A stretch of 59,884 bases of DNA, taken from assembly GCA_028712565.1 (NCBI GenBank), contig JAQTPW010000005.1, positions 1 to 59,884 of the forward strand, given 5' to 3'. The position numbers were made by a program, and so were the translations under genes. The DNA is from Minisyncoccota bacterium. Lineage in GTDB: Bacteria > Patescibacteriota > Minisyncoccia > Minisyncoccales > JAQTPW01. The notes below the pieces were generated by a model that searched no databases, had not been told where the DNA came from, and saw only the letters and a list, made by a program, of their open reading frames with translations. How positions within the stretch are numbered: the first letter of the stretch is position 1; each line of letters starts with the position of its first letter. This document shows positions 9,508 through 58,593 of this stretch, piece after piece.

Positions 9508-9523
9508 ACGCGCTCTAAGCAAA

Positions 9524-9550
9524 TTAGCACTCGCAGGTCTTGACTGCTAA
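9524..9550 (+). promoter_or_regulatory. CIRCE (HrcA operator)-like inverted repeat
   Basis: The sequence TTAGCACTC-gcaggtctt-GACTGCTAA compares with the consensus TTAGCACTC-N9-GAGTGCTAA, giving 17 of 18 matches with an exact 9-nt spacer. Confidence 0.75.
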
Positions 9551-9567
9551 TTTCAATATGATAGAAT
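9540..9567 (+). promoter_or_regulatory. sigma70-like promoter of clpB overlapping CIRCE
   Basis: TTGACT at 9540-9545, a 16-nt spacer, TG at 9559-9560, and TAGAAT at 9562-9567. Confidence 0.6.
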
Positions 9568-9596
9568 GAAAGGGTAATTAAAATATATTTATTCCA

Positions 9597-32755: not shown

Positions 32756-32764
32756 TTATTTAAT

Positions 32765-34584: not shown

Positions 34585-34605
34585 AAAAAATTTAAAAGCA
34601 AATCA

Positions 34606-35550: not shown

Positions 35551-35554
35551 AAAT

Positions 35555-38782: not shown

Positions 38783-39482
38783 AGGGGGATCAAAAGGAAT
38801 ACCGAAAAAGAATATTTATCCGCTTTGCGGAAAGCCCATGATAGGGTACGTGATAGAAAAAGCGCTCAAATCCAAATATATTAATAGGTTGGTTGTTTCT
38901 ACTGACGATACAGAAATTTCTAGGATTTCAAAGAAATTTGGAGCAGAAGTCCCTTTTATGAGGCTCAAAAATTTGGCGCAAGATAGTTCCCCGACCGTGC
39001 CAGTAGTAAAACATGCTTTAGATTGGCTAAAAAAAAATGAAAATTATTTTCCCGACATTATCGTTTTGCTTCAAGCCAATTCTCCTTTAATGAAAACAGA
39101 AGATATAGATAAGGTCGTGGAAAAGCAAATAAAAACAAAAGCCGATGTTGCTTATACTTTAATGGAAATTTCCCATCCTTCCCAATGGCTGCAGAAACTG
39201 AGAAAAGATGAGCCGTATTTTATTTTTCCAGAAAAAAATATAGAAAGCTTTAAAAACCGGCAGTCAATAAAAGAAAAGACTTACCGTTCAACGGGAGTAA
39301 TATCTGCAATAAAAACAGAATATTTTCTTAAAAATTATAATAAAAATCCCCGGCTCTGCCTTCCTAAAAAAGGCCAGAAAACAAAAGCTATTGTTTTGGA
39401 TCCTGTTTCTTCTGTTGATATAGATAATTTTTTGGACTTATATTTTACTGAGACCTTAATTAAAAAGTATAATTTAAAATAA
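38754..39482 (+). CDS. acylneuraminate cytidylyltransferase family (CMP-nonulosonate synthetase, NeuA/LegF-like)
   Basis: MKILGLIPARGGSKGIPKKNI and LVVSTDD motifs. Confidence 0.85.
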   Translation: MKILGLIPARGGSKGIPKKNIYPLCGKPMIGYVIEKALKSKYINRLVVSTDDTEISRISKKFGAEVPFMRLKNLAQDSSPTVPVVKHALDWLKKNENYFPDIIVLLQANSPLMKTEDIDKVVEKQIKTKADVAYTLMEISHPSQWLQKLRKDEPYFIFPEKNIESFKNRQSIKEKTYRSTGVISAIKTEYFLKNYNKNPRLCLPKKGQKTKAIVLDPVSSVDIDNFLDLYFTETLIKKYNLK

Positions 39483-40787
39483 ATGGAAAAAGTTTTATTA
39501 ATCAATCCTTTGGTTACCGATAAAGAAAAATTTAGCAATACGGCTAAAGTTACTCCTCATCATCTGCCTCCTCAAGGGCTTTGTTTTTTGGCGGCGGTTT
39601 TACGGGAAAAAGGATATGCGGTTAAAATTATTGATGCCGAAGCTACTGGTGAAGGAGATGCAATTATTTTAAATATGGTTAGGGCGGAAAACCCGGATTA
39701 TATTGGAATTTCTGCAACTATTTTATCAATATTCCGGGCGGCAGAATACGTGAAGATGTTCCGAGAGAATTTTCCTGATAAAAAAATTATTTTAGGAGGT
39801 CCTCAAATTACAGCTTCTCCTGAAGAAACTATGAAAATTGTTCCGGGAATTGATGCCGGAATTTTAGGAGAAGGAGAAATAACCATCTTGGAATTATTAA
39901 ATGCTTTTAAAAATAAGGGAGATTTAAATTCAGTTAAAGGTTTGATTTTAAAAGAAGGGGATGTTTTAAAAAGAACTGCGCCTCGAGAATTTATTCAAAA
40001 CTTAGATGATCTGCCGCTTCCTGCCTGGGATTTATTGCCAAGTTTAACTCAATATTATAGTACTTCAGCAATTACTTATAAAAGGACTCCCGCCATTAAT
40101 TTGGTTACTTCACGGGGGTGTCCTAATCAATGCATATTTTGCGACAGATCAGTTTTTGGCAGAAAATGGAGGGCTTTTTCACCGAATAGAATTATTGAAA
40201 TGGTAAAGGTTTTAGTTAATAAATACGGCATAAAAGATATCTATTTTGACGATGACCATTTCTTAGTCAGCAAAGAAAGAGTTAAAGAATTTTGCAGATT
40301 ATTGAAAGAAGAAAAAATCGACCTTACTTGGTCGGCAGTTGGCAGGATAGATTCAGTAGATGAAGAACTTATTTCTATTATAAAATCGGTTGGCTGCCAT
40401 CAGTTGGAATTTGGGTTGGAATCCGGTTCCCAAAAAATACTAGATATCTTAAAGAAGAATGTCAAAGTAGAAAATGTTGAGAGAAATTTAAAAATGGTAA
40501 AAGCCGCAGGGTTAAGTATAAAAGGGCTTTTTATGGTAGGCAGCCCCGGGGAAACCGAAGAAACCTTAAAAGAAACAGAAGATTTTATAAAAAGAGTGGG
40601 CATCACCCGTCTTTCAGTAGCTTCCTTTACGCCCCTTCCTGGTTCTGAGGTTTATTCAAAAGCAAAGGAATACGGTTTATTTGATGATGATTGGAGAAAA
40701 ATGAATTTAAGAAATACGCTTTTTGTGCCGTGGGGAGTGACAAAAGAAATGCTAAGCAAATATATAGGAATATATGAGAGAAAATAA
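39483..40787 (+). CDS. cobalamin-binding-domain radical SAM enzyme (paralog 1)
   Basis: N-terminal B12-binding-like Rossmann region (IGISATI...ILGGPQIT) and a CPNQCIFC CxxxCxxC motif. Confidence 0.85.
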   Translation: MEKVLLINPLVTDKEKFSNTAKVTPHHLPPQGLCFLAAVLREKGYAVKIIDAEATGEGDAIILNMVRAENPDYIGISATILSIFRAAEYVKMFRENFPDKKIILGGPQITASPEETMKIVPGIDAGILGEGEITILELLNAFKNKGDLNSVKGLILKEGDVLKRTAPREFIQNLDDLPLPAWDLLPSLTQYYSTSAITYKRTPAINLVTSRGCPNQCIFCDRSVFGRKWRAFSPNRIIEMVKVLVNKYGIKDIYFDDDHFLVSKERVKEFCRLLKEEKIDLTWSAVGRIDSVDEELISIIKSVGCHQLEFGLESGSQKILDILKKNVKVENVERNLKMVKAAGLSIKGLFMVGSPGETEETLKETEDFIKRVGITRLSVASFTPLPGSEVYSKAKEYGLFDDDWRKMNLRNTLFVPWGVTKEMLSKYIGIYERK

Positions 40788-40789
40788 AA

Positions 40790-41890
40790 ATGAAAATAAA
40801 AATAGGAAAAAATTTAATAGGTAAAAATGAGCCATGCTTTATAATAGCTGAAGCTGGAGTTAATCACAACGGCGATTTAAAGCTTGCTAAAAAATTAATT
40901 GATAAAGCCAGAGAAGCCGGAGTTGATGCTGTAAAATTCCAGACATTTAAAGCAGAAAAAATTGTAACCCTTAATGCCAAACAAGCAAAATACCAGACAA
41001 AGAACACCGATAAAAAAGAATCGCAGTACGAAATGTTAAAAAGATTGGAATTATCCTATCCTGATTTTGAGGAATTAAAAAGGTATTGCAAAAGAAAGAA
41101 AATAATCTTTCTTTCCACAGCCCATTCCTGCAAAGAAGATGTAGATTTAGTCGCAAGATTATGCCCGGCAATTAAAATAGCTTCCGGAGATCTGACTAAT
41201 TTGCCATTCTTGGAATATGCCGCCAAAAAAGATCTGCCGATTATTTTATCCACTGGCATGGGAAATTTGGAAGAAGTGAAAGAAGCAGTAAAAACAATTT
41301 TGCCTGTTAATGAAAAACTTATTTTGTTGCACTGCACAACCAATTATCCGACACCTTTTAATGAAGTTAATTTACTGGCAATGAAAACCATGGAAAAAGA
41401 ATTTTCTTTGCCAGTCGGATATTCAGACCATACAGAAGGAATAAAAATTTCTTTGGCAGCCGCGGCTTTGGGAGCTTGTATTATTGAAAAACATTTTACT
41501 TTAGATAAAAAATTACCCGGCCCTGACCATAAAGCATCTTTGGAGCCGGAAGAATTAAAAGAAATGGTTTTGGGAATAAGGAAAATTGAGAAAAGATTAA
41601 AAAACGGAGAAAAATCAAGTGATTTAATAAAGGAGCTTAAAGTTGAAGAATCTTTAGGAAATGGCGTCAAAAAACCGACTAAAAGCGAATTAGAAGTGGC
41701 AAAAGTTGCCAGAAAAAGCATTGTGTCGGCGCAAAATATAAAAAAAGGCAAAATAATAGAAGAAAAAATGCTGGCAATTAAACGACCGGGAACGGGGTTG
41801 GAACCTAAATTTATTGATAAATTAATTGGGAAGAAAGCTAAATTTGATATTAAAAAAGATAAATTAATTAAATTTGGAGATTTATCATAA
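40790..41890 (+). CDS. N-acetylneuraminate synthase family (NeuB/LegI-like) with C-terminal SAF domain
   Basis: EPCFIIAEAGVNHNGDLKLAKKLIDKAREAGVDAVKFQTF and a PGPDHKASLEP motif. Confidence 0.9.
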   Translation: MKIKIGKNLIGKNEPCFIIAEAGVNHNGDLKLAKKLIDKAREAGVDAVKFQTFKAEKIVTLNAKQAKYQTKNTDKKESQYEMLKRLELSYPDFEELKRYCKRKKIIFLSTAHSCKEDVDLVARLCPAIKIASGDLTNLPFLEYAAKKDLPIILSTGMGNLEEVKEAVKTILPVNEKLILLHCTTNYPTPFNEVNLLAMKTMEKEFSLPVGYSDHTEGIKISLAAAALGACIIEKHFTLDKKLPGPDHKASLEPEELKEMVLGIRKIEKRLKNGEKSSDLIKELKVEESLGNGVKKPTKSELEVAKVARKSIVSAQNIKKGKIIEEKMLAIKRPGTGLEPKFIDKLIGKKAKFDIKKDKLIKFGDLS

Positions 41891-43032
41891 TGAGAAAAAT
41901 TTTGTACATATCTGGAACAAGAGCAGATTACGGATTAATGCGAGAAACATTGTTTCAGATTAAAAAAAACCCAAAACTGAAAATTGAAATAGCCGCAACT
42001 GGCATGCATTTAATGCCAGAATTTGGATTGACGATCGACGAAATAAAAAAAGATGGTTTTAAAATTCATAAAGTAAATGCAATTTATAAAAAAGACGATA
42101 AGGAATCAATGGCTTCTTTTATTGGAGAATTGATCCAATTATTGACAAAAGAAATTAAAAAAATAAAGCCGGATATTGTTTTATTATTAGGAGACAGGGG
42201 AGAAATGTTATCTGGAGCCATTGCGGGTTCTTATTTAACAATACCGGTTGCGCATATTGGAGGAGGAGATATAAGCGGAACTATTGATGAGCTGGCCCGT
42301 CACGCGATAACTAAATTATCCCATATTCATTTTCCCGTAACTGAAAATTCAGCAAAAAGGATTCAAAAAATGGGAGAAGAGTCCTGGAGAATATTTAAGG
42401 TTTCAGCTCCCGGATTGGACGATATTTTAAATGAAAAATTATTTTCTGAAAAAGAAATTTCAAAAAAATATAAATTGAATCTTTCAAAGCCAATTTTATT
42501 AGTTGTTCAGCATGCTGTAACTACTGAAATTAATGAGGCCGCAAAACAAATTAAAGAAACCTTGGAAGCAATTAGAGAATTGGGATTTCAAACAATTTTA
42601 ATCTATCCCAACGCTGATGCGGGAGGAAGAGAAATGATAAAAGTTATTAACGAATACAAAAAATACCCATTTATTAAAATTTATAAAAGTATTCCCCGGA
42701 AAGATTATCTCAGTTTGATGAAAATTTCCTCTGTTTTAATAGGAAATTCTAGTTCTGGAGTGATTGAGGCTCCTTCATTTCATTTGCCCATGGTAAATAT
42801 TGGAAAAAGAGAAATAGGCAGGGAAAGGACAAGAAATGTAATTGATACAAATTATAATAAAGAAGAAATAAAAAAAGCCATCGAGAGAGCCATCCACGAT
42901 AAAAAATTTAAAGAATCATTAAAAAAAATAAAAAATCCTTATGGCAATGGAAATGGCGGGAAAAAAATTGCTGATATTTTAGCTAAAATAAAAATTGATA
43001 AAAAATTATTAGAAAAGAAAATAATTTATTAA
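41890..43032 (+). CDS. hydrolysing UDP-N-acetylglucosamine 2-epimerase family (NeuC/LegG-like)
   Basis: ILYISGTRADYGLM, LLGDRGEML and HIGGGD motifs. Confidence 0.88.
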   Translation: MRKILYISGTRADYGLMRETLFQIKKNPKLKIEIAATGMHLMPEFGLTIDEIKKDGFKIHKVNAIYKKDDKESMASFIGELIQLLTKEIKKIKPDIVLLLGDRGEMLSGAIAGSYLTIPVAHIGGGDISGTIDELARHAITKLSHIHFPVTENSAKRIQKMGEESWRIFKVSAPGLDDILNEKLFSEKEISKKYKLNLSKPILLVVQHAVTTEINEAAKQIKETLEAIRELGFQTILIYPNADAGGREMIKVINEYKKYPFIKIYKSIPRKDYLSLMKISSVLIGNSSSGVIEAPSFHLPMVNIGKREIGRERTRNVIDTNYNKEEIKKAIERAIHDKKFKESLKKIKNPYGNGNGGKKIADILAKIKIDKKLLEKKIIY

Positions 43033-43042
43033 AATTATTCTT

Positions 43043-43447
43043 ATGGAAAATCGATTTAAAAATTGGAAACATCCAAAAATTAAGGAAGGAAAGCTGACAA
43101 AATATTATTGGCTTGTCCAGAATAATAAAAATCTAAAGCTCGGCAAAAAAACTGATATTGGCGCATTTACCTATATTAATGCAAAAAATGGAGTGGAAAT
43201 TAAAGATAATGTCCAAATCGGCTCACACTGTTCAATTTATTCTATTTCAACAATAGATAATAAAGAAGGAAAAATTATTCTTGAGAAAAATTGCAAAATA
43301 GGTTCGCATTGCACAATTATGCCCGGCGTCATGGTTGGGGAAAATTCCGTTATCGGGGCTTTTAGCTTTATAAACAAGGACATTCCAGCTAATACTTTAG
43401 CTTATGGGATACCGGTGAAAATAATTAAAAAAATAAACGAAAAATAG
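43043..43447 (+). CDS. hexapeptide-repeat (LbH) acetyltransferase
   Basis: Repeated [LIV]G-x4 hexapeptides (IGSHCSI, IGSHCTI, VGENSVIGA). Confidence 0.8.
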   Translation: MENRFKNWKHPKIKEGKLTKYYWLVQNNKNLKLGKKTDIGAFTYINAKNGVEIKDNVQIGSHCSIYSISTIDNKEGKIILEKNCKIGSHCTIMPGVMVGENSVIGAFSFINKDIPANTLAYGIPVKIIKKINEK

Positions 43448-43461
43448 GTATTTTCATAAAT

Positions 43462-44925
43462 ATGGATAAAAAAATAGACTCTATAGTTTTAAAAGAAAAC
43501 AATAACGTAAAAGCGGCGATGGAGCGCATAGAAAAGAGCGGGGTACGAATAGTTTTAATAGTTGATGATGGCAGAAAGCTTCTTGGCGTAGTAACCGATG
43601 GGAATATTCGCAGGTCGCTTTTATCTGGGAAAAATTTTAATACTTCTTTGGGTGAAATTATGACAAAAAATCCCATTGTCGCAAAAGAACTTGATTCAGC
43701 CGCAGAATTATTGGAAACAATGAACAAAAGAGGCATTCAGGAAATTCCAATAGTTAATGATCAAGGGATATTGGTTGATATTGCTTTGTTATCGGATTTG
43801 AAAAATATTCCTCTTTCTAGCCCGGACATTACTAAAAAAGAAGTTGAATTGATAAACCAGGTTCTGTCCACGCCTTTTTTGAGCATAGGGCCAAAAATAA
43901 AAGAATTTGAAAAAAAGATTGCGAACTTTGTCGGAACAAAATATGCCATAGCGATAAACAGCGGGACTAGCGGGCTCCATCTTTGCGTCAGATCTTTAGA
44001 TATAAAAGACGGCGACGAAGTGATTACCACCCCTTTTAGTTTTATTGCTTCATCGAATTGCATACTTTTTGAAAGAGCAAAGCCGGTATTCGTTGATATA
44101 GATGAAAACACTTTATGTATAGATCCAAATAAAATAGAAGAAAAAATTACAAAAAAAACAAAAGCTATTCTGCCAGTCCATATATTTGGTCATTCTTGTG
44201 AAATGGAAAAGATAATGGAAATTGCAAAAAGATATAATTTGGCAGTTTTAGAAGATGCCTGCGAAGCTTTGGGGGGAGAATATAAAGGTAGAAAAGTTGG
44301 AACTTTTGGGAATGCAGCAGTTTTTGCTTTTTATCCAAACAAACAAATAACTACCGGTGAGGGCGGTGTTATTGTTACGGATGATGAAAGGATTGCAAAA
44401 TTATGCCAAAGTATGCGAAATCAAGGAAGAGATGAGGGTGATTCCTGGCTGTCCCATTCAAGGCTGGGATACAATTATCGGATGACTGAAATAAGCGCGG
44501 CTCTGGGAATAACTCAATTGAGCAGAATTGAAGAAATTTTAGAGAAAAGGCAGAAAGTTGCTGAAAACTACAATAAGAAATTAGAAAAAATAGATGGAGT
44601 AAAAATTCCCTATGTGAGTCCGGAGGTTAAAATAAGCTGGTTTGTTTATGTTATAAGATTAGATGGCAGATTTTCTTTGGAAGATAAAAATGCAATTTTG
44701 CAGAAATTGACGCAAAAGGGGATTAATTGTGGAAATTATTTTCCGTCCATTCACCTGGAACCCTTTTATGTTAAAATGTTTGGATATAAAAATGGGGACT
44801 TTCCAATTACGGAAAGGGTTTCAAATTCAACCATAGCACTGCCTTTCTATAACAATTTAACTGAAAAGCAGATTGACTATGTCTGCGATAATTTAAATTC
44901 AGCAATAAGAGAATTGAAAAAATAA
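43462..44925 (+). CDS. CBS-pair domain fused to a DegT/DnrJ/EryC1 aminotransferase (LegC-like)
   Basis: The first ~115 aa form a CBS pair (GVVTDGNIRR...IQEIPIVNDQGILVDIA). The rest is a PLP aminotransferase with the lysine retained (FYPNKQITTGEGG). Confidence 0.85.
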   Translation: MDKKIDSIVLKENNNVKAAMERIEKSGVRIVLIVDDGRKLLGVVTDGNIRRSLLSGKNFNTSLGEIMTKNPIVAKELDSAAELLETMNKRGIQEIPIVNDQGILVDIALLSDLKNIPLSSPDITKKEVELINQVLSTPFLSIGPKIKEFEKKIANFVGTKYAIAINSGTSGLHLCVRSLDIKDGDEVITTPFSFIASSNCILFERAKPVFVDIDENTLCIDPNKIEEKITKKTKAILPVHIFGHSCEMEKIMEIAKRYNLAVLEDACEALGGEYKGRKVGTFGNAAVFAFYPNKQITTGEGGVIVTDDERIAKLCQSMRNQGRDEGDSWLSHSRLGYNYRMTEISAALGITQLSRIEEILEKRQKVAENYNKKLEKIDGVKIPYVSPEVKISWFVYVIRLDGRFSLEDKNAILQKLTQKGINCGNYFPSIHLEPFYVKMFGYKNGDFPITERVSNSTIALPFYNNLTEKQIDYVCDNLNSAIRELKK

Positions 44926-46470
44926 ATGAAAATTAGAAATTTTACTGAAATAAAATCAATATTCTTTGAAAATCTTGGGACAAAACAAACCATCTTTAAA
45001 AATACGGTCTGGTTGACTTTTGGGAATATTGCCAGCCGGCTTTTAAAAGTGATTTTGGTAATTTATGTCGCTAGGATTCTAGGAGCTACAGAATATGGAA
45101 AATTTTCTTTTGCCCTGTCTTTTGTTTCTCTATTTATTGTTTTTTCAAATTTAGGATTGCCAATTATTATTATCCGAGAATTCGCCAAGGAAAAGGGAGA
45201 TGGAAATGAATTTTACTCAGTTCTTTCTCTAAAAGCTCTTTTAAGCGTGGGCGCTTTAATATTAATATTAATTGGTTCTTTTTTTATTACTCCCGATCCA
45301 AAAATACGCCAAATAATTTTTGTTTTGGCTTTATACGTTCTATTTAATAGTTTTTATTCTATTATAAACTGCTTTTTTAATGCTTATCAGCGTATGGAAT
45401 ACGAAGCGTTCGGGGTAATTTTTGACGCCGCAGTAACAACAGCTGTTGGCCTCTTTATTCTTTTTTATTTTCCTTCAGCATTAAATCTGGGCTACGCTTA
45501 TCTTGTCGGCAGTATTTCCGTTTTGTTTTTTAGCTTAATTATTTTTCAGTGGAAGTTTTTCCCATTGAAAATTAATTGGGAAAAAAGAGTTTGGCGGAAA
45601 TTTTTGTCTATGTCGTGGCCTTTGGCTTTGGTGGGATTATTGGGTTCGATTTTTAACTATACAGATTCAACAATGCTTGGTTATTTTGGCCAACTTGCCG
45701 CGACTGGCTGGTATAATGCAGCTTATAGAATAATAAACGTTTCTTTGCTTCCAATGGGGCTAGTTGCCGGCAGTTTTTTTCCAGCCTTGAGCAAATACGC
45801 AAATGCCCCAAAAGATGCGACTACAGAGGATTTGGAGAATTCCAAAAAAAATCTCCAGAAGGTTTGGGATTATGAAATGATGTTGATGATTCTTATTGCA
45901 ATTCCTCTTGTGGTAGGAGGAATTGTTTTTGCCCCTAAAATTATTTTATTTCTTTATGGAGAAGGATTTTTACAGTCCATTTTGGCTTTTCAAATTTTAA
46001 TAATAATGGCGGGAATTACTTTTTTATACATACCTTTTTACGATCTTTTAATCGCCTCAGGAGAACAAAAAAGAATATTTTGGGGAACTTTGGCAGCAGC
46101 TTTCTTTAATGTTATTACAAATTTAATTTTTATTCCCAAATTCAGCTTGTATGGAGCAGCTGCAACTTCAGTCGTATCTTATTTTTTGATGTTTATTTTG
46201 TTTTTCCGGTTTGCGCATAAATACACCTCTATTAATCCATTTAAAATAAAATTTATAATTTATTTGGCAGGAGCCTTTCTTTCCAGTGTTGTGATGTATT
46301 TTGCCATATCCCGGCCGCAAATTTATAATCTTCATATTGCTTTTCCCGGCAACATTATACCATCTGTTTTGGATATTATTTTCCCGATTTTAACTGGCGT
46401 AATAGTATATGGCGTATCTTTATTTATTTTAAAAATTTTTGCTGGAAAAATAAATAAAAACTTAGTTTAA
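44926..46470 (+). CDS. Wzx-like polysaccharide flippase (MOP superfamily)
   Basis: About 12-14 hydrophobic helices in a glycan operon context. Confidence 0.75.
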   Translation: MKIRNFTEIKSIFFENLGTKQTIFKNTVWLTFGNIASRLLKVILVIYVARILGATEYGKFSFALSFVSLFIVFSNLGLPIIIIREFAKEKGDGNEFYSVLSLKALLSVGALILILIGSFFITPDPKIRQIIFVLALYVLFNSFYSIINCFFNAYQRMEYEAFGVIFDAAVTTAVGLFILFYFPSALNLGYAYLVGSISVLFFSLIIFQWKFFPLKINWEKRVWRKFLSMSWPLALVGLLGSIFNYTDSTMLGYFGQLAATGWYNAAYRIINVSLLPMGLVAGSFFPALSKYANAPKDATTEDLENSKKNLQKVWDYEMMLMILIAIPLVVGGIVFAPKIILFLYGEGFLQSILAFQILIIMAGITFLYIPFYDLLIASGEQKRIFWGTLAAAFFNVITNLIFIPKFSLYGAAATSVVSYFLMFILFFRFAHKYTSINPFKIKFIIYLAGAFLSSVVMYFAISRPQIYNLHIAFPGNIIPSVLDIIFPILTGVIVYGVSLFILKIFAGKINKNLV

Positions 46471-46477
46471 TAAAAAA

Positions 46478-48151: not shown

Positions 48152-48173
48152 CAATAAACAATAATTAAAAACT

Positions 48174-49160
48174 ATGATTTTAAAAGACAAAACTATATTA
48201 ATAACAGGCGGCACAGGCTCTTTTGGCCAGAAATTTGCCGAAATTATATTAAAGGACCAGAACCCTAAGACTGTACGTATTTACGATCATGATGAGTTAT
48301 CCGAAGTTGAAATGGAGCGAAAATTTAACAATCCAAGATTGAGATTTTTTATCGGCGACGTTCGGGATAAAAGCCGGCTTTACCGGGCAATGAGCGGAGT
48401 TGATGTTTTGGTTCATGCTGCTGCCTTAAAACACGTACCCATTTGCGAATACAACCCGATAGAAGCAGTAAAAACAAATATTGAAGGAACCATAAATGTC
48501 ATTGATGCCGCCATTGATAATTCAGTGGAAAGGGCAATAGTAATTAGCACAGATAAGGCAGTGTATCCGGTTAACTTGTACGGCGCAACTAAAATGGTGG
48601 CTGAAAAACTTTTTATCCAGGCAAATTCTTATGTTGGCGGGCAAAGAAAAACTATATTTTCAGCGGCAAGATACGGAAACGTTCTGGGAAGCTCAGGAAG
48701 CGTAGTCCCTTTATTCGAAGAGCAGAAAAAAAATGGGGAAATTACCATTACTGACGAACGGATGACCAGGTTTTGGGTTACTTTGGAAGAGGGGATTCGT
48801 TTTGTCGCAAATTGCATTGAGATTATGAAAGGTGGGGAAGTATTTATTCCTAAAATTCCGAGCATGAAAATTATAGATTTGGCCGAAGTTATGGCGCCCA
48901 ATGCGCGCAAAAAAATTGTGGGCATTAGACCTGGAGAAAAATTGCACGAGATTCTTTTGACAGAAGAAGAGGCAAAACACGCCAAGGAATTTAATGAATA
49001 TTTCGTAATTGAGCCAGAGTTTCCTTTTTGGGACAATAACAATTTTAAAGAAGGAAAAAACCTTTTAGATGGCTTTGAATATACCAGCGATAAGAATACC
49101 AAATGGATTACAAAGGAAAAAATGCAGGAAATTTTAAAAAATCTAAAAATAGAAAAATGA
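48174..49160 (+). CDS. pseB: UDP-N-acetylglucosamine 4,6-dehydratase (PseB/FlaA1-like)
   Basis: ILITGGTGSFG, RFFIGDVRD, HAAALKHVP, STDKAVYPVNLYGATK. Confidence 0.88.
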   Translation: MILKDKTILITGGTGSFGQKFAEIILKDQNPKTVRIYDHDELSEVEMERKFNNPRLRFFIGDVRDKSRLYRAMSGVDVLVHAAALKHVPICEYNPIEAVKTNIEGTINVIDAAIDNSVERAIVISTDKAVYPVNLYGATKMVAEKLFIQANSYVGGQRKTIFSAARYGNVLGSSGSVVPLFEEQKKNGEITITDERMTRFWVTLEEGIRFVANCIEIMKGGEVFIPKIPSMKIIDLAEVMAPNARKKIVGIRPGEKLHEILLTEEEAKHAKEFNEYFVIEPEFPFWDNNNFKEGKNLLDGFEYTSDKNTKWITKEKMQEILKNLKIEK

Positions 49161-50305
49161 AAAAATTAATTCCTTACGGCCATCAATGGATAGACGAAAA
49201 AGACATAAAAGAAGTGGTGAAGATATTAAAAAGCGATTGGGTGACCCAAGGCCCTAAAATTGAAGAATTCGAGAATGCGATTGCGAAGTACTGCAAGGCA
49301 AAATATGCCGTAGCGGTTTCTTCAGGAACTGCGGCTTTGTACGCAGCTTATGCTGTGGCAGGGATTTTGCCTGGAAATGAAATTATTACCACTCCGTTAA
49401 CCTTTGCTGCAACCTCTTACGCCGCCCTTTTTTTCGGGGCAAAACCTGTTTTTGCAGATATTCAAGAGGATACTTTAAATATCGATCCCGTAGAAATAGA
49501 AAAGAAAATTACAAAAAAAACAAAAATAATATCTCCGGTTGATTTTGCCGGCCACCCCTGCGACTATGACCTGATCCAAAAAATAGCTAAAAAACACAAA
49601 CTTTTAGTAATCGAAGACGCCGCCCATGCTTTGGGCGCTAAATATAGAGGCAAAAAAATAGGCAGCTTTTCTGACATGACAATTTTAAGCTTCCATCCGG
49701 TAAAAACCATAACTACCGGTGAAGGGGGAATGATTTTAACAAACGATAAAAAACTTTACGAGAAATTAAAAATTTTCCGAAACCATGGGATAATAAAAAA
49801 TCCCAAAATTGGCGGCTGGTATTACGATATAAAAAATCCGGGCTTCAATTTGCGGCTTACTGATTTTCAAAGCGCTCTAGGAATCAGCCAGTTAAAGAAA
49901 GTAGATAAATTTATAAAAAGGAGAAGGGAAATTGTAGCAAGATATAATAGCGCATTTAAAAACATAAAAGAAATTAAAATTCCGGTTGAAAGGGATTATG
50001 TGAAGTCTTCTTGGCATATTTATATTATCCGGCTCCAGTTGGATAAATTGAAGGCAAGCCGAAAAGAAATATTTGAATCAATGCAAAAAGAAGGTTTGGG
50101 GGTTCAGGTCCATTATGTATTATTGAATCTGCAACCTTTCTGTCAGGAGGGTTTTGGGATGTCTTATGGGGCTGGAGATTTTCCGGTAGCTGAAAAATAT
50201 TATTCAGAAGCAATTACAATACCACTATTTCCTAAGATGACGGATAAAGAAGTGGAATACGTTATTAAGACTGTAAAAAAGGTAATTAATCGTTACAAGA
50301 AATAA
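49157..50305 (+). CDS. pseC: UDP-4-amino-4,6-dideoxy-N-acetyl-beta-L-altrosamine transaminase (PseC-like)
   Basis: Trimmed to the ATG at 49157, which forms an ATGA overlap with the pseB stop. MKKLIPYGHQWIDEKDI and the SFHPVKTITTGEGG lysine motif. Confidence 0.85.
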   Translation: MKKLIPYGHQWIDEKDIKEVVKILKSDWVTQGPKIEEFENAIAKYCKAKYAVAVSSGTAALYAAYAVAGILPGNEIITTPLTFAATSYAALFFGAKPVFADIQEDTLNIDPVEIEKKITKKTKIISPVDFAGHPCDYDLIQKIAKKHKLLVIEDAAHALGAKYRGKKIGSFSDMTILSFHPVKTITTGEGGMILTNDKKLYEKLKIFRNHGIIKNPKIGGWYYDIKNPGFNLRLTDFQSALGISQLKKVDKFIKRRREIVARYNSAFKNIKEIKIPVERDYVKSSWHIYIIRLQLDKLKASRKEIFESMQKEGLGVQVHYVLLNLQPFCQEGFGMSYGAGDFPVAEKYYSEAITIPLFPKMTDKEVEYVIKTVKKVINRYKK

Positions 50306-50307
50306 AT

Positions 50308-50904
50308 ATGAAAAAAACAAAACAAATTAAAATTTGGGAAAATAAATTTGGCAGAGATTATACAGACCGCAACGTTGTTGACCCAAAAACTCGGATTAAA
50401 ATGTTTAAAAAAATGATAGGGAATTTGGATATTAAAACGATTCTTGAAGTGGGCTGCAATAAAGGCCATAATTTGGCGGCCTTATCAAAAATTGGCAAAT
50501 ATCAATTAATCGGAATGGAGCCGTCCGAATATGCTATTGTAAAAGGAAAAGAGGTAAGCCAATTCCCAATAATAAGAGGAAATTGCTTTGGAATTCCGTT
50601 TATTGATTCCTATTTTGATTTAGTTTTTACTTGCGGAGTTTTAATCCATATCGAAGTCCAGGATTTGCCAAAAGCCATAAATGAAATTTACCGAGTAAGC
50701 AAAAAATATATTTTAGCAATTGAATATTTTTCTCCAGAAAATACAACTATTCATTACCGGGGGCATAATGACCTGCTTTGGAAAAGGGATTTTAAAAAAT
50801 ATTTTTTAAAGCAAAAGCCAAATTTAAAATATTTAGGCGGCGGGCATTTGGAAAAAGAAGACGGATTCGATAATTGCAATTGGTGGCTATTTGAAAAAAG
50901 ATGA
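50308..50904 (+). CDS. pseudaminic-acid-biosynthesis-associated methylase-like class I methyltransferase
   Basis: WENKFGRDYTDRN at the N-terminus and an ILEVGCNKGHNL motif I. Confidence 0.7.
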   Translation: MKKTKQIKIWENKFGRDYTDRNVVDPKTRIKMFKKMIGNLDIKTILEVGCNKGHNLAALSKIGKYQLIGMEPSEYAIVKGKEVSQFPIIRGNCFGIPFIDSYFDLVFTCGVLIHIEVQDLPKAINEIYRVSKKYILAIEYFSPENTTIHYRGHNDLLWKRDFKKYFLKQKPNLKYLGGGHLEKEDGFDNCNWWLFEKR

Positions 50905-52307
50905 AAATACTAATTATTAATATTTCTTTAAGGCCAAACAGCGAAAAAATGATGTTTCCTATTGGGTTAGGATATATTTCAACTGCTATTGAAAAGGCAG
51001 GTTTTAACTTTGAAATTTTTGATTTGGATGCCCTTCGGCCATCGGATTTAGAAATTGAAGAATATATTAAAAAAACGGATTTTGACGTGGCAGCTTTTGG
51101 ATGCATAGTGACCGGTTACAAATACGTAAAAAAATTAGCAGAATTAATTAAAAAATATAAAAATGTGCCGATTATTGTAGGAAATTCGGTTGCCACTTCG
51201 ATTCCAGAATTATTATTAACAAAAACCAAAGTTGATATTGCAGTTATGGGAGAAGGAGATATAACAATCATCGAATTATTAAAAGCCATTGAAAATAAAA
51301 ATCCTTTGGATGATGTAAAGGGGATTGTTTTTCTAAAAGACAATAAAGTATTTTTTACTCCTGAAAGAGAGCTTATTTTGAATTTAGACGAGCTCCCCTT
51401 TATAAATTACGATCTGTTTGATATGGAAACTTATTTGGCGCACTGTAAATTTAACGTTGGCGAACCCTACCCAATGGAATTTGATCTATTAAAGGCATTG
51501 CCGATAAATACCGCTCGAGGCTGCCCAAATAATTGCACTTTTTGTTATCATGTTTTTAAAAGAAAAAGATATCGCATACGTTCAATAGAAAATATTGGTC
51601 GAGAAATAAAACATTTGAAAGAGAAATACGGATTAAATTATATTCAATTTTCCGACGAGCTTACGCTCTTTTCAAAAGAACAGGCTAATAAATTTGCAGA
51701 TTATTTTTTGAAAGAAAATCTTGGAGTCTTTTGGCAAGCAGATTGCCGAGCTGGTTTATTCGGAAATACCGATCTAGACCTTGCTTTAAAATTACAAAAA
51801 GCTGGTTGCGTTGAGTTAGGATATTCCTTAGAATCTGCCGATGAAGAAATTTTAAAGGCAATGGATAAAAAAATTACTGTTCAGGATTTTGTAATTCAAA
51901 CAAAAATTCTTCAGAAAGCGGGAATTTCTACTTCAACAAGCGTTGTGATTGGGTATCCGCAAGAAACAGAAGAAACCATAAAGAAAACATTGAATTGCTG
52001 TTTAGAAAACAATATTTATCCTAGCACGGGGTATTTGCTTCCTCAGCCCGGAACTCCGATGTATGATTATGCGAGAACTGAAGGAATAATAAAAGACGAA
52101 GAAGAATATTTATTAAAAATGGGAGACAGACAGGATTTCACGATTAATTTGACGAAAATGCCCCAGGAAAGAATGGAGGAGCTTGTAAAGGAATATTTAA
52201 AAAAAATTGCAGAAAAAATGGAATTAAACTTAAAGGAAGAAAGTCTTATTAAAACAGGTCATTACAGACAAAAAATATTTTTAGAAAATAAAAATGAAAA
52301 AAGTTAA
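50901..52307 (+). CDS. cobalamin-binding-domain radical SAM enzyme (paralog 2)
   Basis: A B12-binding-like N-terminus and a CPNNCTFC motif. It overlaps the upstream gene by 4 nt. Confidence 0.85.
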   Translation: MKILIINISLRPNSEKMMFPIGLGYISTAIEKAGFNFEIFDLDALRPSDLEIEEYIKKTDFDVAAFGCIVTGYKYVKKLAELIKKYKNVPIIVGNSVATSIPELLLTKTKVDIAVMGEGDITIIELLKAIENKNPLDDVKGIVFLKDNKVFFTPERELILNLDELPFINYDLFDMETYLAHCKFNVGEPYPMEFDLLKALPINTARGCPNNCTFCYHVFKRKRYRIRSIENIGREIKHLKEKYGLNYIQFSDELTLFSKEQANKFADYFLKENLGVFWQADCRAGLFGNTDLDLALKLQKAGCVELGYSLESADEEILKAMDKKITVQDFVIQTKILQKAGISTSTSVVIGYPQETEETIKKTLNCCLENNIYPSTGYLLPQPGTPMYDYARTEGIIKDEEEYLLKMGDRQDFTINLTKMPQERMEELVKEYLKKIAEKMELNLKEESLIKTGHYRQKIFLENKNEKS

Positions 52308-53406
52308 AATTAAAAATAAAGTTATTGGTAACGGTAGCCCATGCTTTGTTATTGCCGAAGCCGGCTCTAATCATGACGGAAAATTCGAACAGGCAAAAAA
52401 ATTAATAGATGTTGCCGCTTTTGCTGGAGCTGACGCGGTAAAATTTCAATTATTCCGAGCCGCAAAAATTTATCCTAAAACTTCAGGCAAAGTTGACACG
52501 CCTGCGGGAAAGATCGATTTATATAAATTTTTTGAACAAGTTGAGCTTCCTTCAAAATGGCTTTTCCCTTTAAAAAAGTATTCAGAGAAAAAGGGGCTAA
52601 TTTTTATTGTCTCTCCCTTTGACGAAGAAAGCGCGGATCTTCTTGAGAAAATTAAAGTAGAGGTTTATAAAATTGCTTCTCCCGAATTAAACCACATACC
52701 TTTGATCAGGCATATCGCCAAAAAGAAAAAACCCATGATTCTCGCCGAAGGATTGAGCACCTTGAGCGATATCGAGGAGGCCTTAAATACTGCCTATAAG
52801 GAAAATAATTTTCAGACAATACTTTTGCATTGCGTAAGCTCCTATCCGGCTCCGCCCGAAGATTATAATTTAAATGTAATTGAAACATTAAGACGGGTCT
52901 TCCAGGTCCTGGTAGGAATTTCTGACCATACTTTAGACCCCGTCCTTATTCCAAAACTAGGAGCGGCCTTGGGAATTTCTGCGATCGAGAAGCATTTTAC
53001 GATAAGCAGAAAATTAGAAGGACCAGATCATCCTTTTGCGATAGAGCCTGAAGAATTAAAATTAATGGTAAAAGAAATTAGAGAGACAGAAAAATGGAGC
53101 AATGAAAAGAAAAGTAAATTTCTTAAAAGCAAACCCCTTTACGAGAAAATTTTGGGAACTAGCCAGAAAGTTATTGCGCCTTCTGAAAAAGTACTTTATC
53201 CCGGTGACAAAAGAAGTATTTTTACAATAAAAGACGTAAAGAAAGGTGAAAAATTGGGAAAAAACAATATAGCAGTTTTGAGGGCAGAAAGATATCTAAA
53301 GCCCGGAATTCATCCCAGATATTTCAATTTAGTTTTGGGGAAAAAAGCTACGAAGCTAATCAAGAAGTTTTCAGGTTTGCAATGGGATAATTTACTGACA
53401 ATTTAA
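52294..53406 (+). CDS. NeuB-family nonulosonate synthase (PseI-like) with SAF domain
   Basis: SPCFVIAEAGSNHDGKFEQAKKLIDVAAFAGADAVKFQLF and a GPDHPFAIEP motif. Confidence 0.85.
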   Translation: MKKVKIKNKVIGNGSPCFVIAEAGSNHDGKFEQAKKLIDVAAFAGADAVKFQLFRAAKIYPKTSGKVDTPAGKIDLYKFFEQVELPSKWLFPLKKYSEKKGLIFIVSPFDEESADLLEKIKVEVYKIASPELNHIPLIRHIAKKKKPMILAEGLSTLSDIEEALNTAYKENNFQTILLHCVSSYPAPPEDYNLNVIETLRRVFQVLVGISDHTLDPVLIPKLGAALGISAIEKHFTISRKLEGPDHPFAIEPEELKLMVKEIRETEKWSNEKKSKFLKSKPLYEKILGTSQKVIAPSEKVLYPGDKRSIFTIKDVKKGEKLGKNNIAVLRAERYLKPGIHPRYFNLVLGKKATKLIKKFSGLQWDNLLTI

Positions 53407-53419
53407 TTTAAAAAATATT

Positions 53420-54157
53420 ATGAATATAGTTGCAATTATTCAGGCAAGAATGGGATCTACTCGTTTACCTCAGAAAGTTCTGCGTGCGATTGGCGGAAAA
53501 CCTATGTTGCAATGGGTTGTTGAAAGAGCAAAAAGGTCGCGGATGGTAAATGACGTAATTGTTGCTACTTCAGATAAGAAACAAGATGATTTAATTGAAA
53601 AATTGTGTAAAAAATTAAAAATTGGCTATTTCCGGGGTTCTGAAAACGATGTTTTAAATAGGTTTTATCAGGCAGCGAAAAAATATAAGGCAGATAAAGT
53701 GGTAAGAATCACCGGAGATTGTCCTTTTATAGAGCCCGAAATTATAGACGAGGTAATTAGAACACATCTTAAAAATAAAAACGATTATACGTCAAATGAC
53801 GCAGGTGTGGGATATCCCAGAGGCCTGGATGTTGAAGTTTTTAATTTCGGCTCTTTAGAAAAGGCAAATTTTAAAGCAAAAAAAATTTACGAAAGAGAGC
53901 ACGTTACCCCATATTTTTACGAGAATCCGAGAATTTTTAAAGTACAAATATTAAAAGCAAAGGGAATTTTAAAGAGGCCAAAATTCAGGCTCTGCGTAGA
54001 TAAAAAAGAAGATTTAAAATTAGTAAGGGAAATTTATAAAATTTTAAGTAAAAGGAAAAAAGGCATTAGTATATTCGATATAATTCATTTGTTGGATTCG
54101 GATAAAAAATTGGCCAGGGTCAATGAAAATATCAGGCAAAAGAAGCTGGGTGAATAA
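53420..54157 (+). CDS. SpsF/PseF-type cytidylyltransferase
   Basis: MNIVAIIQARMGSTRLPQKVL, VIVATSD and RITGDCPF motifs. Confidence 0.8.
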   Translation: MNIVAIIQARMGSTRLPQKVLRAIGGKPMLQWVVERAKRSRMVNDVIVATSDKKQDDLIEKLCKKLKIGYFRGSENDVLNRFYQAAKKYKADKVVRITGDCPFIEPEIIDEVIRTHLKNKNDYTSNDAGVGYPRGLDVEVFNFGSLEKANFKAKKIYEREHVTPYFYENPRIFKVQILKAKGILKRPKFRLCVDKKEDLKLVREIYKILSKRKKGISIFDIIHLLDSDKKLARVNENIRQKKLGE

Positions 54158-54158
54158 T

Positions 54159-55139
54159 ATGAAAAATAAGAAACTTAGAATTGTTTTCCGCGTTGACGGC
54201 AATAAAAAAATCGGCATGGGTCATGTAATGCGATGCCTTGCTTTGGCTGATGAGTTGAAAGAAAGAATTGGCTGCAAAATTTTTTTTGTGATGAAAAATT
54301 CCGCAGATTCCGAAAAAGAAGTTTTAAAATGCGGTTACGATATAACTGCTAATTTCCCAAAAAGTTTTTTGGATATAGCAATAGTCAGTGTTCCCGACAT
54401 TGGAAACAAATATTTATCAACAATAAAAAAACAGGTAAAATTACTTGTTGTTATCGATGATTCTGCAAAAACACAATATTGCGCCGATATTGTCGTAAAA
54501 TGCAGTTGCGTGCCGGAGCTATCAAGATTTGATAGAAAAGCAAAAGGGAAATTCTTAATAGGTTTGGATTATGTGATTTTGAATAAAGAATTTCAAATTA
54601 TTAACCTAAGAAAAAAAATAATAAATCCGAAGGCAAAATCTGTTTTGATAACCATGGGAGGAAGCGACATAAACAATCTTACTCCAAAAATAATGGAAGC
54701 TTTGAAAAAAATCTCTGATATCAAAAAAACTGTTGTAGTGGGGCCAGCTTTTAAAAACAAATTAAAGCCAAATAAGGAATATGATTCAAAATACGGAGTT
54801 TCAAATATGGCTTCCCTTATGTTTTCTTCGGATTTGGCAATTGTGGGCGGCGGGATAACTTTGTATGAAGTAGCTTGTGTCGGGACTCCGGGAATTGTCC
54901 TTTGCCAGACTGATTATCAAAAGATGGAAGCAGAATGTTTTGAAAAAGCAGGAGCTATTTTAAATTTGGGTTTTGGGAAGAATTTGGGTGAAGAAAAAAT
55001 CGCCGCAAGCGTTAAGGTCCTCCTAAAGGATAAAGAAATGCGGAAAAAAATGAGCAACATCGGAAAAAAAATAATTGACGGAAAAGGGGCAAAAAGAGTC
55101 GTTGATAAAATTTTAGATAAAATAAGAAAATATGAATAA
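54159..55139 (+). CDS. pseG: PseG-like UDP-sugar hydrolase (GT28-type fold)
   Basis: Trimmed to the ATG at 54159. RIVFRVDGNKKIGMGHVMRCLALADEL is typical of PseG/SpsG. Confidence 0.8.
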   Translation: MKNKKLRIVFRVDGNKKIGMGHVMRCLALADELKERIGCKIFFVMKNSADSEKEVLKCGYDITANFPKSFLDIAIVSVPDIGNKYLSTIKKQVKLLVVIDDSAKTQYCADIVVKCSCVPELSRFDRKAKGKFLIGLDYVILNKEFQIINLRKKIINPKAKSVLITMGGSDINNLTPKIMEALKKISDIKKTVVVGPAFKNKLKPNKEYDSKYGVSNMASLMFSSDLAIVGGGITLYEVACVGTPGIVLCQTDYQKMEAECFEKAGAILNLGFGKNLGEEKIAASVKVLLKDKEMRKKMSNIGKKIIDGKGAKRVVDKILDKIRKYE

Positions 55140-56490
55140 TAAAATACTTCTAATTAATCCGCCAATGACCTATTTGACTTCGGTAGAACCAATAAGATTG
55201 GCCCAACCGATGGGCATTTGTTATATTGCCGGAGTTTTAGAAAGAGCAGGTTATGATATCAAATTGCTTGACGCCCATGCGGAAGGATATTATGGCCGGC
55301 AAAAATTAGGAGATAGGACGCAGGTCGGGTTGAGTGAAAAAGAAATCAGAGATAAAATAATGGATTTTAATCCGGCAATAGTTGGTGTGTCTTCAATGTT
55401 TACTGATCAGTATCATAACGCTAAAATGGTTTGCAAAGCTGCAAAAGAAGCAAATCCTGAAATTATAACTTGCATGGGCGGAGTTCATCCGACTTTGGTT
55501 CCAGAAGAAGTTTTAAAAGATCCGAATGTAAATTATATTTTGAGGAGTGAAGCAGAATATAGCTTTTTGGATTTTTGCGATTGGCAAATAAAGGAAAAGA
55601 ATATTTCCCCTGAAAAAATTGACGGGCTTAATCTAAATCCAAAAGAGCAATGGATTAAAAATTTGGATGATTTACCCTTTCCGGCTCGGCATCTTTTACC
55701 CTTGCAAAAATATTTTGAAGCAGGAAAGGCCTATAGGGAGCCGTCAAAAAGAGAGCCCGCTTTTCCGATAATTACTTCGAGGTGCTGCCCGGCCTCTTGT
55801 AGGTTTTGCGCCACTCATCTCATGCAAGGTTATTATAGGGAAAGAAGCGTAGATAATGTTATTGCCGAAATGGAATATCTTATTGATAATTACGGGATGA
55901 AGGAAATATATTTTTTAGATGACGCTTTGGCCCATGGAAATTTTCGCCAAATTTTAAAAAAAATGATTGAAAAAAAATTTGATGTGGTATGGCATGGGGC
56001 AAATGGTATTGCGGTTTACAGTATGGACGATGAAATTATTGAATTATTTGCAAAATCGGGATGTTATAAAGTATTATTGGCTATTGAATCGGGGGTTCAG
56101 GAAACCTTGGCTTATATGAGAAAGCCAGTCAGGTTGGAAAAGGTGAGGGCTGTTGTAGAGAAAATTAAAAGCTATGGCATGAAAACAGAAAGTTTGTTCA
56201 TGATAGGCCTTCCCTGCGAAACTAAAGAAAGCATGCAAAACACGGTGAAATTCGCAGAAAGTTTGAATTTAGATTATGCCACTTTTCCCATTGCCACTCC
56301 TTTTCCCGGAACCGATCTCTATAAAGATTGCCTAGAAAAAGGGTATTTGGTCAAAGATTATAAATACGAAAATCTCAAATTCGGGATTGGAAATATCCAA
56401 ACAGAAGAATGGGGTCCGGAATTTGTTGAGAACTTGAGAAAAGAGGCTTGGTTAAGAATAAATAAAATTGATTCCGCAAATCTAGATTAA
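55132..56490 (+). CDS. cobalamin-binding-domain radical SAM enzyme (paralog 3)
   Basis: A B12-binding-like N-terminus (ILLINPPMTY...VGVSSMFT) and a CPASCRFC motif. It overlaps pseG by 8 nt. Confidence 0.85.
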   Translation: MNNKILLINPPMTYLTSVEPIRLAQPMGICYIAGVLERAGYDIKLLDAHAEGYYGRQKLGDRTQVGLSEKEIRDKIMDFNPAIVGVSSMFTDQYHNAKMVCKAAKEANPEIITCMGGVHPTLVPEEVLKDPNVNYILRSEAEYSFLDFCDWQIKEKNISPEKIDGLNLNPKEQWIKNLDDLPFPARHLLPLQKYFEAGKAYREPSKREPAFPIITSRCCPASCRFCATHLMQGYYRERSVDNVIAEMEYLIDNYGMKEIYFLDDALAHGNFRQILKKMIEKKFDVVWHGANGIAVYSMDDEIIELFAKSGCYKVLLAIESGVQETLAYMRKPVRLEKVRAVVEKIKSYGMKTESLFMIGLPCETKESMQNTVKFAESLNLDYATFPIATPFPGTDLYKDCLEKGYLVKDYKYENLKFGIGNIQTEEWGPEFVENLRKEAWLRINKIDSANLD

Positions 56491-58588: not shown

Positions 58589-58593
58589 AAATT

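Follow-up and report, generated by a model that had tools for sequence, protein, structure and literature searches.

The nonulosonic acids (sialic, pseudaminic and legionaminic acids) are found as decorations on flagella, capsules and S-layers, where they influence motility, phage recognition and host interaction. Such diversity as is known among them lies in stereochemistry and in N- and O-substituents added by conventional enzymes; the canonical pseudaminic acid (Pse) pathway, PseB-PseC-PseH-PseG-PseI-PseF, has no radical S-adenosylmethionine (SAM) enzyme. Most characterised class B radical SAM enzymes are methyltransferases: GenK and GenD1 of gentamicin biosynthesis C-methylate unactivated carbons of amino sugars, and in the fosfomycin pathway Fom3, working with the cytidylyltransferase domain of Fom1, methylates a substrate linked to cytidine monophosphate (CMP). 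We analysed contig JAQTPW010000005.1 of a Minisyncoccota bacterium (the whole stretch of 59,884 nucleotides is called the window), in which three class B radical SAM genes, here named rSAM1, rSAM2 and rSAM3, stand among genes for the synthesis of legionaminic- or neuraminic-type (Leg or Neu) and Pse-type sugars. From their sequences and gene neighborhoods we propose, with moderate confidence, that the three families are dedicated to nonulosonic acid biosynthesis, most likely by cobalamin-dependent C-methylation, and that rSAM2 acts after PseI.

The locus resembles several described systems and matches none of them. As with Fom1 and Fom3, a cytidylyltransferase (CTP_transf_3) gene adjoins rSAM1 and rSAM2, and fusions of such a gene with rSAM2 orthologues exist; this likeness was drawn from descriptions. 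Fom3, however, works on a two-carbon phosphonate, whereas the substrate here would be a nine-carbon keto-acid sugar; phosphoenolpyruvate (PEP) mutase and other phosphonate genes are absent here and, unlike Fom1, the cytidylyltransferase belongs to the KdsB/NeuA family. GenK and GenD1, also compared by description, differ in that they work on aminoglycoside pseudo-oligosaccharides in actinomycete secondary metabolism and not on nucleotide-activated surface sugars. By sequence and fold, the best or second-best solved relative is AprD4 (PDB 6fd2), the radical SAM 1,2-diol dehydratase of apramycin biosynthesis, which has the same two-domain layout and an amino sugar as substrate. The NCBIfam AprD4 model nevertheless gives only 124, 51 and 76 bits for rSAM1, rSAM2 and rSAM3 (cut-off 500), and the partner reductase AprD3 has no counterpart here. 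The Sden_1168/PhpK P-methyltransferases (NF038361, TIGR04479) are the nearest curated family for rSAM3 and rSAM2, far below the cut-off of 575, but the window contains no phosphonate or phosphinate genes. HpnJ, a hopanoid-associated class B radical SAM enzyme thought to remodel a glucosamine-derived sugar, is nearest to rSAM1, but there is no hopanoid context here. The canonical Pse pathway is represented in the window by PseB, PseC, PseG and the TIGR03587 methylase, all above their cut-offs; in contrast to that pathway, PseH is missing, the places of PseI and PseF are taken by non-canonical relatives, and two class B radical SAM genes and a WbqC gene are inserted.

Family status of the three enzymes

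The first-pass annotation of the window had described three paralogous proteins, each with a B12-binding domain and a CxxxCxxC radical SAM core. Pfam hidden Markov models bore out both domains in all three. The N-terminal B12-binding domain (PF02310) scored 70.3 bits in rSAM1, 60.4 in rSAM2 and 76.5 in rSAM3 (Pfam cut-off 32.1), and Radical_SAM (PF04055) scored 97, 81.2 and 73.9 bits, respectively (Pfam cut-off 29.5). In the three-protein alignment the N-termini read M-EKVLLINP (rSAM1), M-KILIIN (rSAM2) and MNNKILLINP (rSAM3). The cluster motif, CPNQCIFC in rSAM1, CPNNCTFC in rSAM2 and CPASCRFC in rSAM3, was invariant in its CxxxCxxC pattern among the three and in the orthologue alignments of rSAM2 and rSAM3, which hold 97 and 126 invariant columns.

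Paralogy, by comparison, stood at the level of the superfamily and failed for recent duplication: pairwise identity among the three proteins is 31-32%, and each has orthologues of its own elsewhere at 50-84%. Median identity was 58-70% within the families, and because it was only 25-32% between them, a recent triplication of one gene was ruled out. Judged by these alignments, rSAM1, rSAM2 and rSAM3 stand for three separate class B radical SAM families of old origin. Comparison with about 30 curated class B NCBIfam families (HpnJ, BchE, PhpK, Sden_1168, ApyD, AprD4, MgmA/TIGR04014, BzaD, HpnR, KedN5 and others) gave no match that reached its cut-off (0/36 for rSAM1, 0/28 for rSAM2 and 0/29 for rSAM3). 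The best curated matches of rSAM1 were HpnJ (190.6 bits, cut-off 577.6) and BchE (188 bits), far under cut-off, whilst rSAM2 (158.4 bits) and rSAM3 (240.9 bits) both matched the Sden_1168 P-methyltransferase family best (cut-off 575).

Searches of PDB sequences returned AprD4, MgmA (9ccb), OxsB, TokK, CysS and TsrM as solved relatives, AprD4 being the best match for rSAM1 (1e-27) and rSAM3 (1.8e-16). Folds were compared for rSAM2, whose AlphaFold2 (AF2) model had a predicted local distance difference test score (pLDDT) of 89.2 and a predicted template modelling score (pTM) of 0.87. Foldseek aligned it with TsrM, CysS, OxsB, MgmA, AprD4 and TokK at E-values of 1e-18 to 4e-23. The model superposes on all these solved relatives at template modelling (TM) scores of 0.63-0.71, which confirms the class B architecture, but the predicted fold singles out no reaction type.

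The closest relatives of all three proteins come from metagenome-assembled genomes of Patescibacteria, of the candidate phyla radiation (CPR), at 81-84% identity. A plasmid collection held no orthologues, only class B relatives at 26-30% identity, and no relatives were found in a phage collection. Genes for cobalamin uptake or salvage were not found in the window, which is only a small part of the genome.

Conserved nonulosonate neighborhoods

Each of the three clades keeps a conserved linkage to nonulosonate genes in other genomes. rSAM2 is the largest and best-conserved family, with more than 120 protein clusters at 56-84% identity. When one genome per species was scanned, 84 relatives came up, and 80 of these loci were retained. 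The hosts are Patescibacteria, Woesearchaeota, Bacillota (Acetivibrio straminisolvens, A. mesophilus, a Clostridiaceae isolate and Pelosinus), Desulfobacterota (Desulfosudis oleivorans, Geomonas limicola and Desulfobulbus propionicus), Nitrospirota, Omnitrophota, Planctomycetota (Scalindua) and Methanocorpusculum. Most rSAM2-carrying organisms are anaerobes, cultured ones included, and the family is not peculiar to the organism of the window. Window proteins were searched against the loci by tblastn, and the 41 loci flanked by 5 kb or more on each side were scored within a radius of 10 kb. A NeuB-family synthase was found in 31/41, and at least one of NeuB, CTP_transf_3, PseB, PseG and the Pse-associated methylase in 38/41. 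The methylase was the commonest immediate neighbor of rSAM2, directly adjacent in 13 of the 80 loci. The conserved partner set places rSAM2 with the Pse-associated methylase and a KdsB-like cytidylyltransferase, in the setting of PseB/C/G/I clusters.

Two loci from cultured lineages illustrate this arrangement. In A. mesophilus the locus is a flagellin glycosylation island, with two flagellins, two Maf proteins, PseB, rSAM2, the Pse-associated methylase, a cytidylyltransferase, a methyltransferase, PseI, PseH, PseG and PseC. That of D. oleivorans is a Pse cluster (PseB, PseC, the Pse-associated methylase, rSAM2, a cytidylyltransferase, PseG-PseH and PseI) which also contains acetamidino genes of the WbuX/HisH/HisF type. 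PseI scored 498.7 and 491.6 bits in these two clusters (cut-off 340), and PseC, PseG and PseH were canonical equivalogs above cut-off in both, whereas the cytidylyltransferase adjacent to rSAM2 gave no PseF match at E <= 1e-20. Natural fusions were also seen, in which an N-terminal rSAM2 is joined to a C-terminal methyltransferase (Methyltransf_11; P0252), PseB-type dehydratase (Polysacc_synt_2; P0254 and P0308) or cytidylyltransferase (CTP_transf_3; P0305, P0309 and P0313).

The cytidylyltransferase that travels with rSAM2 (window 53420-54157; locus L017 12090-12830; locus L049 14128-14877) is KdsB-like and not a PseF equivalog, even beside canonical PseC/G/H/I. Its window copy weakly matches the N-terminal part of the 'spiro-SPASM' model TIGR04321 (42 bits), which on this sequence match may represent another cytidylyltransferase-radical SAM pairing, in spirochaetes. 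Two IMG/VR contigs classed as viral (L094 and L095) carry rSAM2 orthologues (about 50% identity) by PseB-, cytidylyltransferase- and NeuB-like genes.

For rSAM1, five contexts were compared (the window, L003, L004/5, L090 and L091), in which close homologues share 54-64% identity and broader ones, from Woesearchaeota and Omnitrophota, 48-49%. In all five a CTP_transf_3 gene lies directly upstream of the rSAM1 homologue, with NeuB nearby. A class I methyltransferase is found one or two genes upstream in four of the five (including L090, L091 and L004). A 413-aa protein is present in three, and stands next to the rSAM1 homologue in L090 (59% identity) and L091 (32%); this protein (37541..38782 in the window) had no Pfam, NCBIfam or meaningful PDB match. 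The class I methyltransferase, the 413-aa protein, the cytidylyltransferase and rSAM1, next to NeuB/NeuC, thus form the conserved partner set. Distant members of the family are fused to a methyltransferase domain (P0131 and P0159) and sit in archaeal glycan clusters of the AglB type. Directly downstream of the rSAM1 orthologue of L003, at 9200-11587, lies the gene of a 795-aa protein in which NeuB and SAF domains are joined to an amine-oxidase/GLF-like flavoprotein domain.

The rSAM3 clade is narrow, with 27 clusters at 57-83% identity before a fall to 43%. WbqC was directly downstream of rSAM3 in 10/10 loci that have downstream DNA (the window, L001, L002, L087, L088, L089, L096, L097, L100 and L101). 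CTP_transf_3 and/or PseG are found upstream and a NeuB-type synthase usually downstream, giving a conserved set of (PseG)-rSAM3-WbqC upstream of the synthase. Because the next tier of homologues (about 41% identity) sits in glycan clusters without nonulosonate genes, the nonulosonate link is a property of the rSAM3 clade and not of the wider branch.

The WbqC family is described in the literature only as functionally uncharacterised. As a single query and as a 13-sequence profile it gave no match among PDB sequences, and its single-sequence AF2 model (pLDDT 35.6) was not used. The two genes that follow WbqC in the window have homologues in L087, 63% and 71% identical and in the same order; neither protein had a family or PDB match. 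A PseH profile built from 19 loci had no match in any rSAM3-WbqC locus, and a PseH-type GNAT was not found with it in the window. As to the idea that WbqC replaces PseH, the two did not overlap in a first tblastn pass (0/50, p = 0.005); the more sensitive profile placed a GNAT gene immediately before WbqC in L025 and L026, and support weakened to p = 0.037. That WbqC-bearing loci tend to be without a PseH-type GNAT is thus a weak lead.

One further rSAM3 locus, L089 (1-17246), carries a CTP_transf_3-rSAM3-WbqC cassette with three MptE/Maf-like genes, a formyltransferase and a methyltransferase, beside ParA, a NUMOD3 protein, an N6/N4 DNA methyltransferase and many small open reading frames. 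It may be a mobile element that carries sugar-tailoring genes; comparison with PHROG gave matches only to ParA and the DNA methylase, and phage structural genes were not found.

In the window, the three radical SAM genes lie in a run of 26 genes on the forward strand of this Patescibacteria contig (32027-59442), with intergenic gaps of -58 to +22 nt. This operon falls into four blocks: a GDP-colitose-like set, a Neu/Leg-type module, a Wzx flippase with a Capsule_synth-like protein, and a Pse module. The genes of the two nonulosonate modules, all on the forward strand (+), are as follows.

36838..37590 (+), class I SAM methyltransferase (Methyltransf_11, Pfam 74 bits), partner in the rSAM1 module
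37541..38782 (+), conserved 413-aa protein, function unassigned, travelling with rSAM1 (homologues in L090 and L091)
38754..39482 (+), CTP_transf_3 cytidylyltransferase (Pfam 98.8 bits) resembling CMP-nonulosonate synthetases (PseF model 154 bits, below the 205.7 cut-off), directly upstream of rSAM1
39483..40787 (+), rSAM1, class B radical SAM enzyme of the Neu/Leg-type module (PF02310 and PF04055)
40790..41890 (+), NeuB1, NeuB-type nonulosonate synthase (TIGR03569, 460.9 bits, above the 399.65 cut-off)
41890..43032 (+), NeuC-type hydrolysing UDP-GlcNAc 2-epimerase (TIGR03568, 446 bits, above the 235.9 cut-off)
43043..43447 (+), NeuD/LegH-like acetyltransferase, short, with hexapeptide repeats (Hexapep, 53.9 bits)
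43462..44925 (+), CBS-domain and DegT aminotransferase, PseC/LegC-like, sub-threshold
48174..49160 (+), PseB, UDP-GlcNAc 4,6-dehydratase (inverting) (TIGR03589, 483.6 bits, above the 407.75 cut-off)
49103..50305 (+), PseC aminotransferase (TIGR03588, 475.5 bits, above the 423.5 cut-off)
50308..50904 (+), Pse-associated methylase, a class I SAM methyltransferase and rSAM2 partner (TIGR03587, 170.3 bits, above the 112.05 cut-off)
50901..52307 (+), rSAM2, the Pse module's class B radical SAM enzyme, from the family with the widest spread of the three
52294..53406 (+), NeuB2, non-canonical NeuB/PseI-like synthase (PseI model 279.3 bits, below 340.25; NeuB model 294.2 bits, below 399.65)
53420..54157 (+), KdsB-like cytidylyltransferase (CTP_transf_3, Pfam 167.5 bits; PseF model 41.6 bits, below 205.7), presumed synthetase of a CMP-Pse derivative
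54123..55139 (+), PseG-like UDP-sugar hydrolase (TIGR03590, 155.6 bits, borderline above the 153.55 cut-off)
55132..56490 (+), rSAM3, class B radical SAM enzyme preceding WbqC (PF02310 and PF04055)
56495..57184 (+), WbqC-family protein, function unassigned (PF08889, 269.4 bits, above the 21.3 gathering cut-off)
57200..59442 (+), two conserved proteins (462 and 282 aa) after WbqC, function unassigned

An open reading frame check returned the positions that the first-pass annotation had given for the three radical SAM genes (39483-40787, 50901-52307 and 55132-56490), and the coupling of each to a nonulosonate gene was reproduced at every junction. The last base of the CMP-synthetase-like gene is 39482 and the first of rSAM1 is 39483 (TAAATG), with a 2-nt gap between rSAM1 and NeuB1. 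rSAM2 overlaps the Pse-associated methylase by 4 nt (ATGA) and NeuB2 by 14 nt, whilst rSAM3 overlaps PseG by 8 nt and ends 4 nt before the WbqC start.

Hexapeptide acetyltransferases of matching size (134-138 aa) also follow NeuC in L090 and L091. The N-terminal pair of CBS domains on the DegT aminotransferase (43462-44925) is an unusual fusion, and this part is missing from the L091 and L004 homologues. The upstream part of the operon (32027-36838) resembles a pathway of the GDP-colitose type for a 3,6-dideoxyhexose, with a ManC-like nucleotidyltransferase (NTP_transferase), gmd (511 bits), an fcl/ColC-like reductase and an RfbH/ColD-like pyridoxal phosphate enzyme, together with a 241-aa fragment of a nucleoside diphosphate-sugar dehydrogenase (32765-33490). 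Just upstream of the operon lie three very large predicted surface proteins (14541-17234, 19379-22909 and 23334-28274), one with LTD and PKD domains, one of 1176 aa with no Pfam match and one of 1646 aa with Big_5; these are plausible targets of glycosylation.

Proposed chemistry and pathway stage

Radical C-methylation is our preferred chemistry, held tentatively, because most of the characterised class B enzymes are C- or P-methyltransferases and because GenK and GenD1 offer precedents on sugars. The enzymes would reductively cleave SAM on the [4Fe-4S] cluster bound by CxxxCxxC, take a hydrogen atom from an unactivated carbon, either in the sugar or in one of its N-acyl groups, and, most likely, transfer a methyl group from methylcobalamin, cobalamin use being read from the domain only. 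The adjacent class I methyltransferases may add a further O- or N-methyl group. rSAM2 would most likely act late, on Pse5Ac7Ac or its CMP ester, with CMP as a possible handle in the manner of Fom3, because PseC, PseH, PseG and PseI are canonical in the cultured hosts whereas the cytidylyltransferase next to rSAM2 is not. Tailoring around the CMP activation step is also matched by the rSAM2-cytidylyltransferase fusions and by the Fom1/Fom3 precedent. rSAM1 probably carries out the equivalent step on a Neu/Leg-type sugar. rSAM3 and WbqC more likely act before the synthase, that is before condensation with PEP, because they stand between PseG and the synthase, their loci are without a PseH-type GNAT and the window synthase is non-canonical. 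The product would be a modified CMP-nonulosonate that decorates surface glycoproteins or glycans, with flagellin as the evident target in Acetivibrio.

Several points weigh against this scheme. We know of no nonulosonic acid with a C-methyl group, and the tailoring role of the three families is putative. Class B enzymes in general offer no diagnostic sequence motif from which cobalamin binding could be read, and AprD4, among the best PDB matches, is a dehydratase that reportedly works without cobalamin. The scheme does not account for the constant class I methyltransferase partner, because a class B methylase needs no separate methyltransferase. As regards the timing of rSAM2, the PseB beside it in Acetivibrio scores 333 bits, under the cut-off of 407.75, a result that would also fit an early step. 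The fusion partners (PseB, cytidylyltransferase and methyltransferase) were rejected as a guide to pathway stage since they mirror gene order. With a GNAT beside WbqC in 2/11 WbqC loci (p = 0.037, from non-independent loci), the exclusivity of WbqC and PseH is weak.

The ever-present methyltransferase would be explained if the radical SAM enzymes tailored the nonulosonate pathway by radical chemistry without methyl transfer, which we think rather unlikely but the most serious of the rival explanations. Such chemistry might be a dehydration or deamination like that of AprD4 or DesII, an epimerisation at an unactivated carbon that yields new stereoisomers, or a rearrangement like those of HpnJ and OxsB; the B12-like domain would then have another role or be vestigial, and all methyl groups would come from the class I methyltransferases. 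One of these is always nearby or fused, giving methylation a catalyst of its own. AprD4 is the best PDB match of rSAM1 and rSAM3 and is aligned with the rSAM2 model at a TM score of 0.71, the top NCBIfam matches of rSAM1 (HpnJ and BchE) are non-methylases, and the position of rSAM3 implies a UDP-4-amino-4,6-dideoxyhexose substrate, the class on which DesII works. The matches to non-methylase families, however, are far below cut-off and barely better than those to methylase families, and for rSAM2 and rSAM3 the highest-scoring family is one of predicted P-methyltransferases (158 and 241 bits, respectively). The B12-binding domain is moreover two-fold above its Pfam cut-off and conserved across each family, and methylases predominate among the class B enzymes characterised so far.

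A different target altogether, such as another sugar of the glycan (for example the colitose-type deoxyhexose of the upstream genes), an acceptor protein or lipid, or an acyl donor, would make the co-location a matter of packed glycan islands. Class B radical SAM genes are indeed common in glycan clusters without nonulosonate genes (L006, L092/L093 and the Lawsonia plasmid L107), a GDP-colitose-like pathway shares the window operon, and NeuB was absent within 10 kb in 10/41 well-flanked rSAM2 loci. We nevertheless consider this improbable: each family keeps its specific nonulosonate neighbors across phyla whatever else the island holds, rSAM2 is fused to PseB and to the CMP-transferase, and the Acetivibrio rSAM2 is surrounded by only Pse genes, Maf proteins and flagellins. 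Decay of the three genes into non-functional paralogues, with an arrangement that means nothing, is already contradicted by conservation and can practically be dismissed, given intact reading frames, retained catalytic motifs, the 97 (rSAM2) and 126 (rSAM3) invariant columns across orthologues, tight translational coupling and synteny across phyla.

Novelty and wider occurrence

A full-text search of a literature library found no paper that links radical SAM or B12-binding enzymes to pseudaminic, legionaminic, nonulosonic or sialic acid, NeuB, O-antigen or flagellin glycosylation. NCBIfam has a model for the Pse-associated methylase and none for its radical SAM neighbor. The first-pass annotation had spoken of an undescribed tailoring system, and the two computational checks that might have refuted it came out in its favor: the B12-domain and SAM-cluster residues and the nonulosonate linkage are all conserved. 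Its wording is fair, because neither a curated family nor a paper in that library describes such Pse/Leg enzymes. The enzyme superfamily is known, and what is new is that three uncurated families have an undescribed conserved role in a well-studied sugar pathway.

The pairing of class B radical SAM and methyltransferase genes also recurs in glycan clusters without nonulosonate genes. In archaeal and bacterial clusters of this kind (L006; L092/L093), each with two to four class B radical SAM genes, the neighbors include AglB/STT3, GT9, PMT_2 and carbamoyltransferase genes. Uncultured anaerobes may commonly use radical SAM enzymes to tailor their surface glycans. The 27-kb plasmid of Lawsonia intracellularis (NZ_CP107057.1; L107) has a glycan cluster with two radical SAM, six class I methyltransferase, GT2 glycosyltransferase, SIS, HAD and GHMP-kinase genes; the pairing is therefore also present in a surface-sugar locus of a cultured pathogen.

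The question of rSAM2 function is directly testable, as orthologues occur in the cultured A. mesophilus, A. straminisolvens, Pelosinus and Geomonas limicola. If the proposal is true, the conserved radical SAM step would bring chemistry of a new kind to the nonulosonic acid family, and nucleotide-activated nine-carbon sugars would be a new substrate class for class B enzymes. In its boldest form, which we regard as speculative, these enzymes would methylate CMP-activated or free pseudaminic and legionaminic/neuraminic-type acids and so build unseen C-alkylated sialic acid-like sugars, branched or ten-carbon, that coat flagella and surface proteins in many anaerobes, in CPR bacteria and in DPANN archaea; rSAM3-WbqC would be a second new step, reshaping the 4-amino-hexose before PEP condensation. 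On the main proposal, CPR bacteria and DPANN archaea, with their reduced genomes, would be spending iron-sulfur, and probably scavenged cobalamin, on the tailoring of surface sugars.

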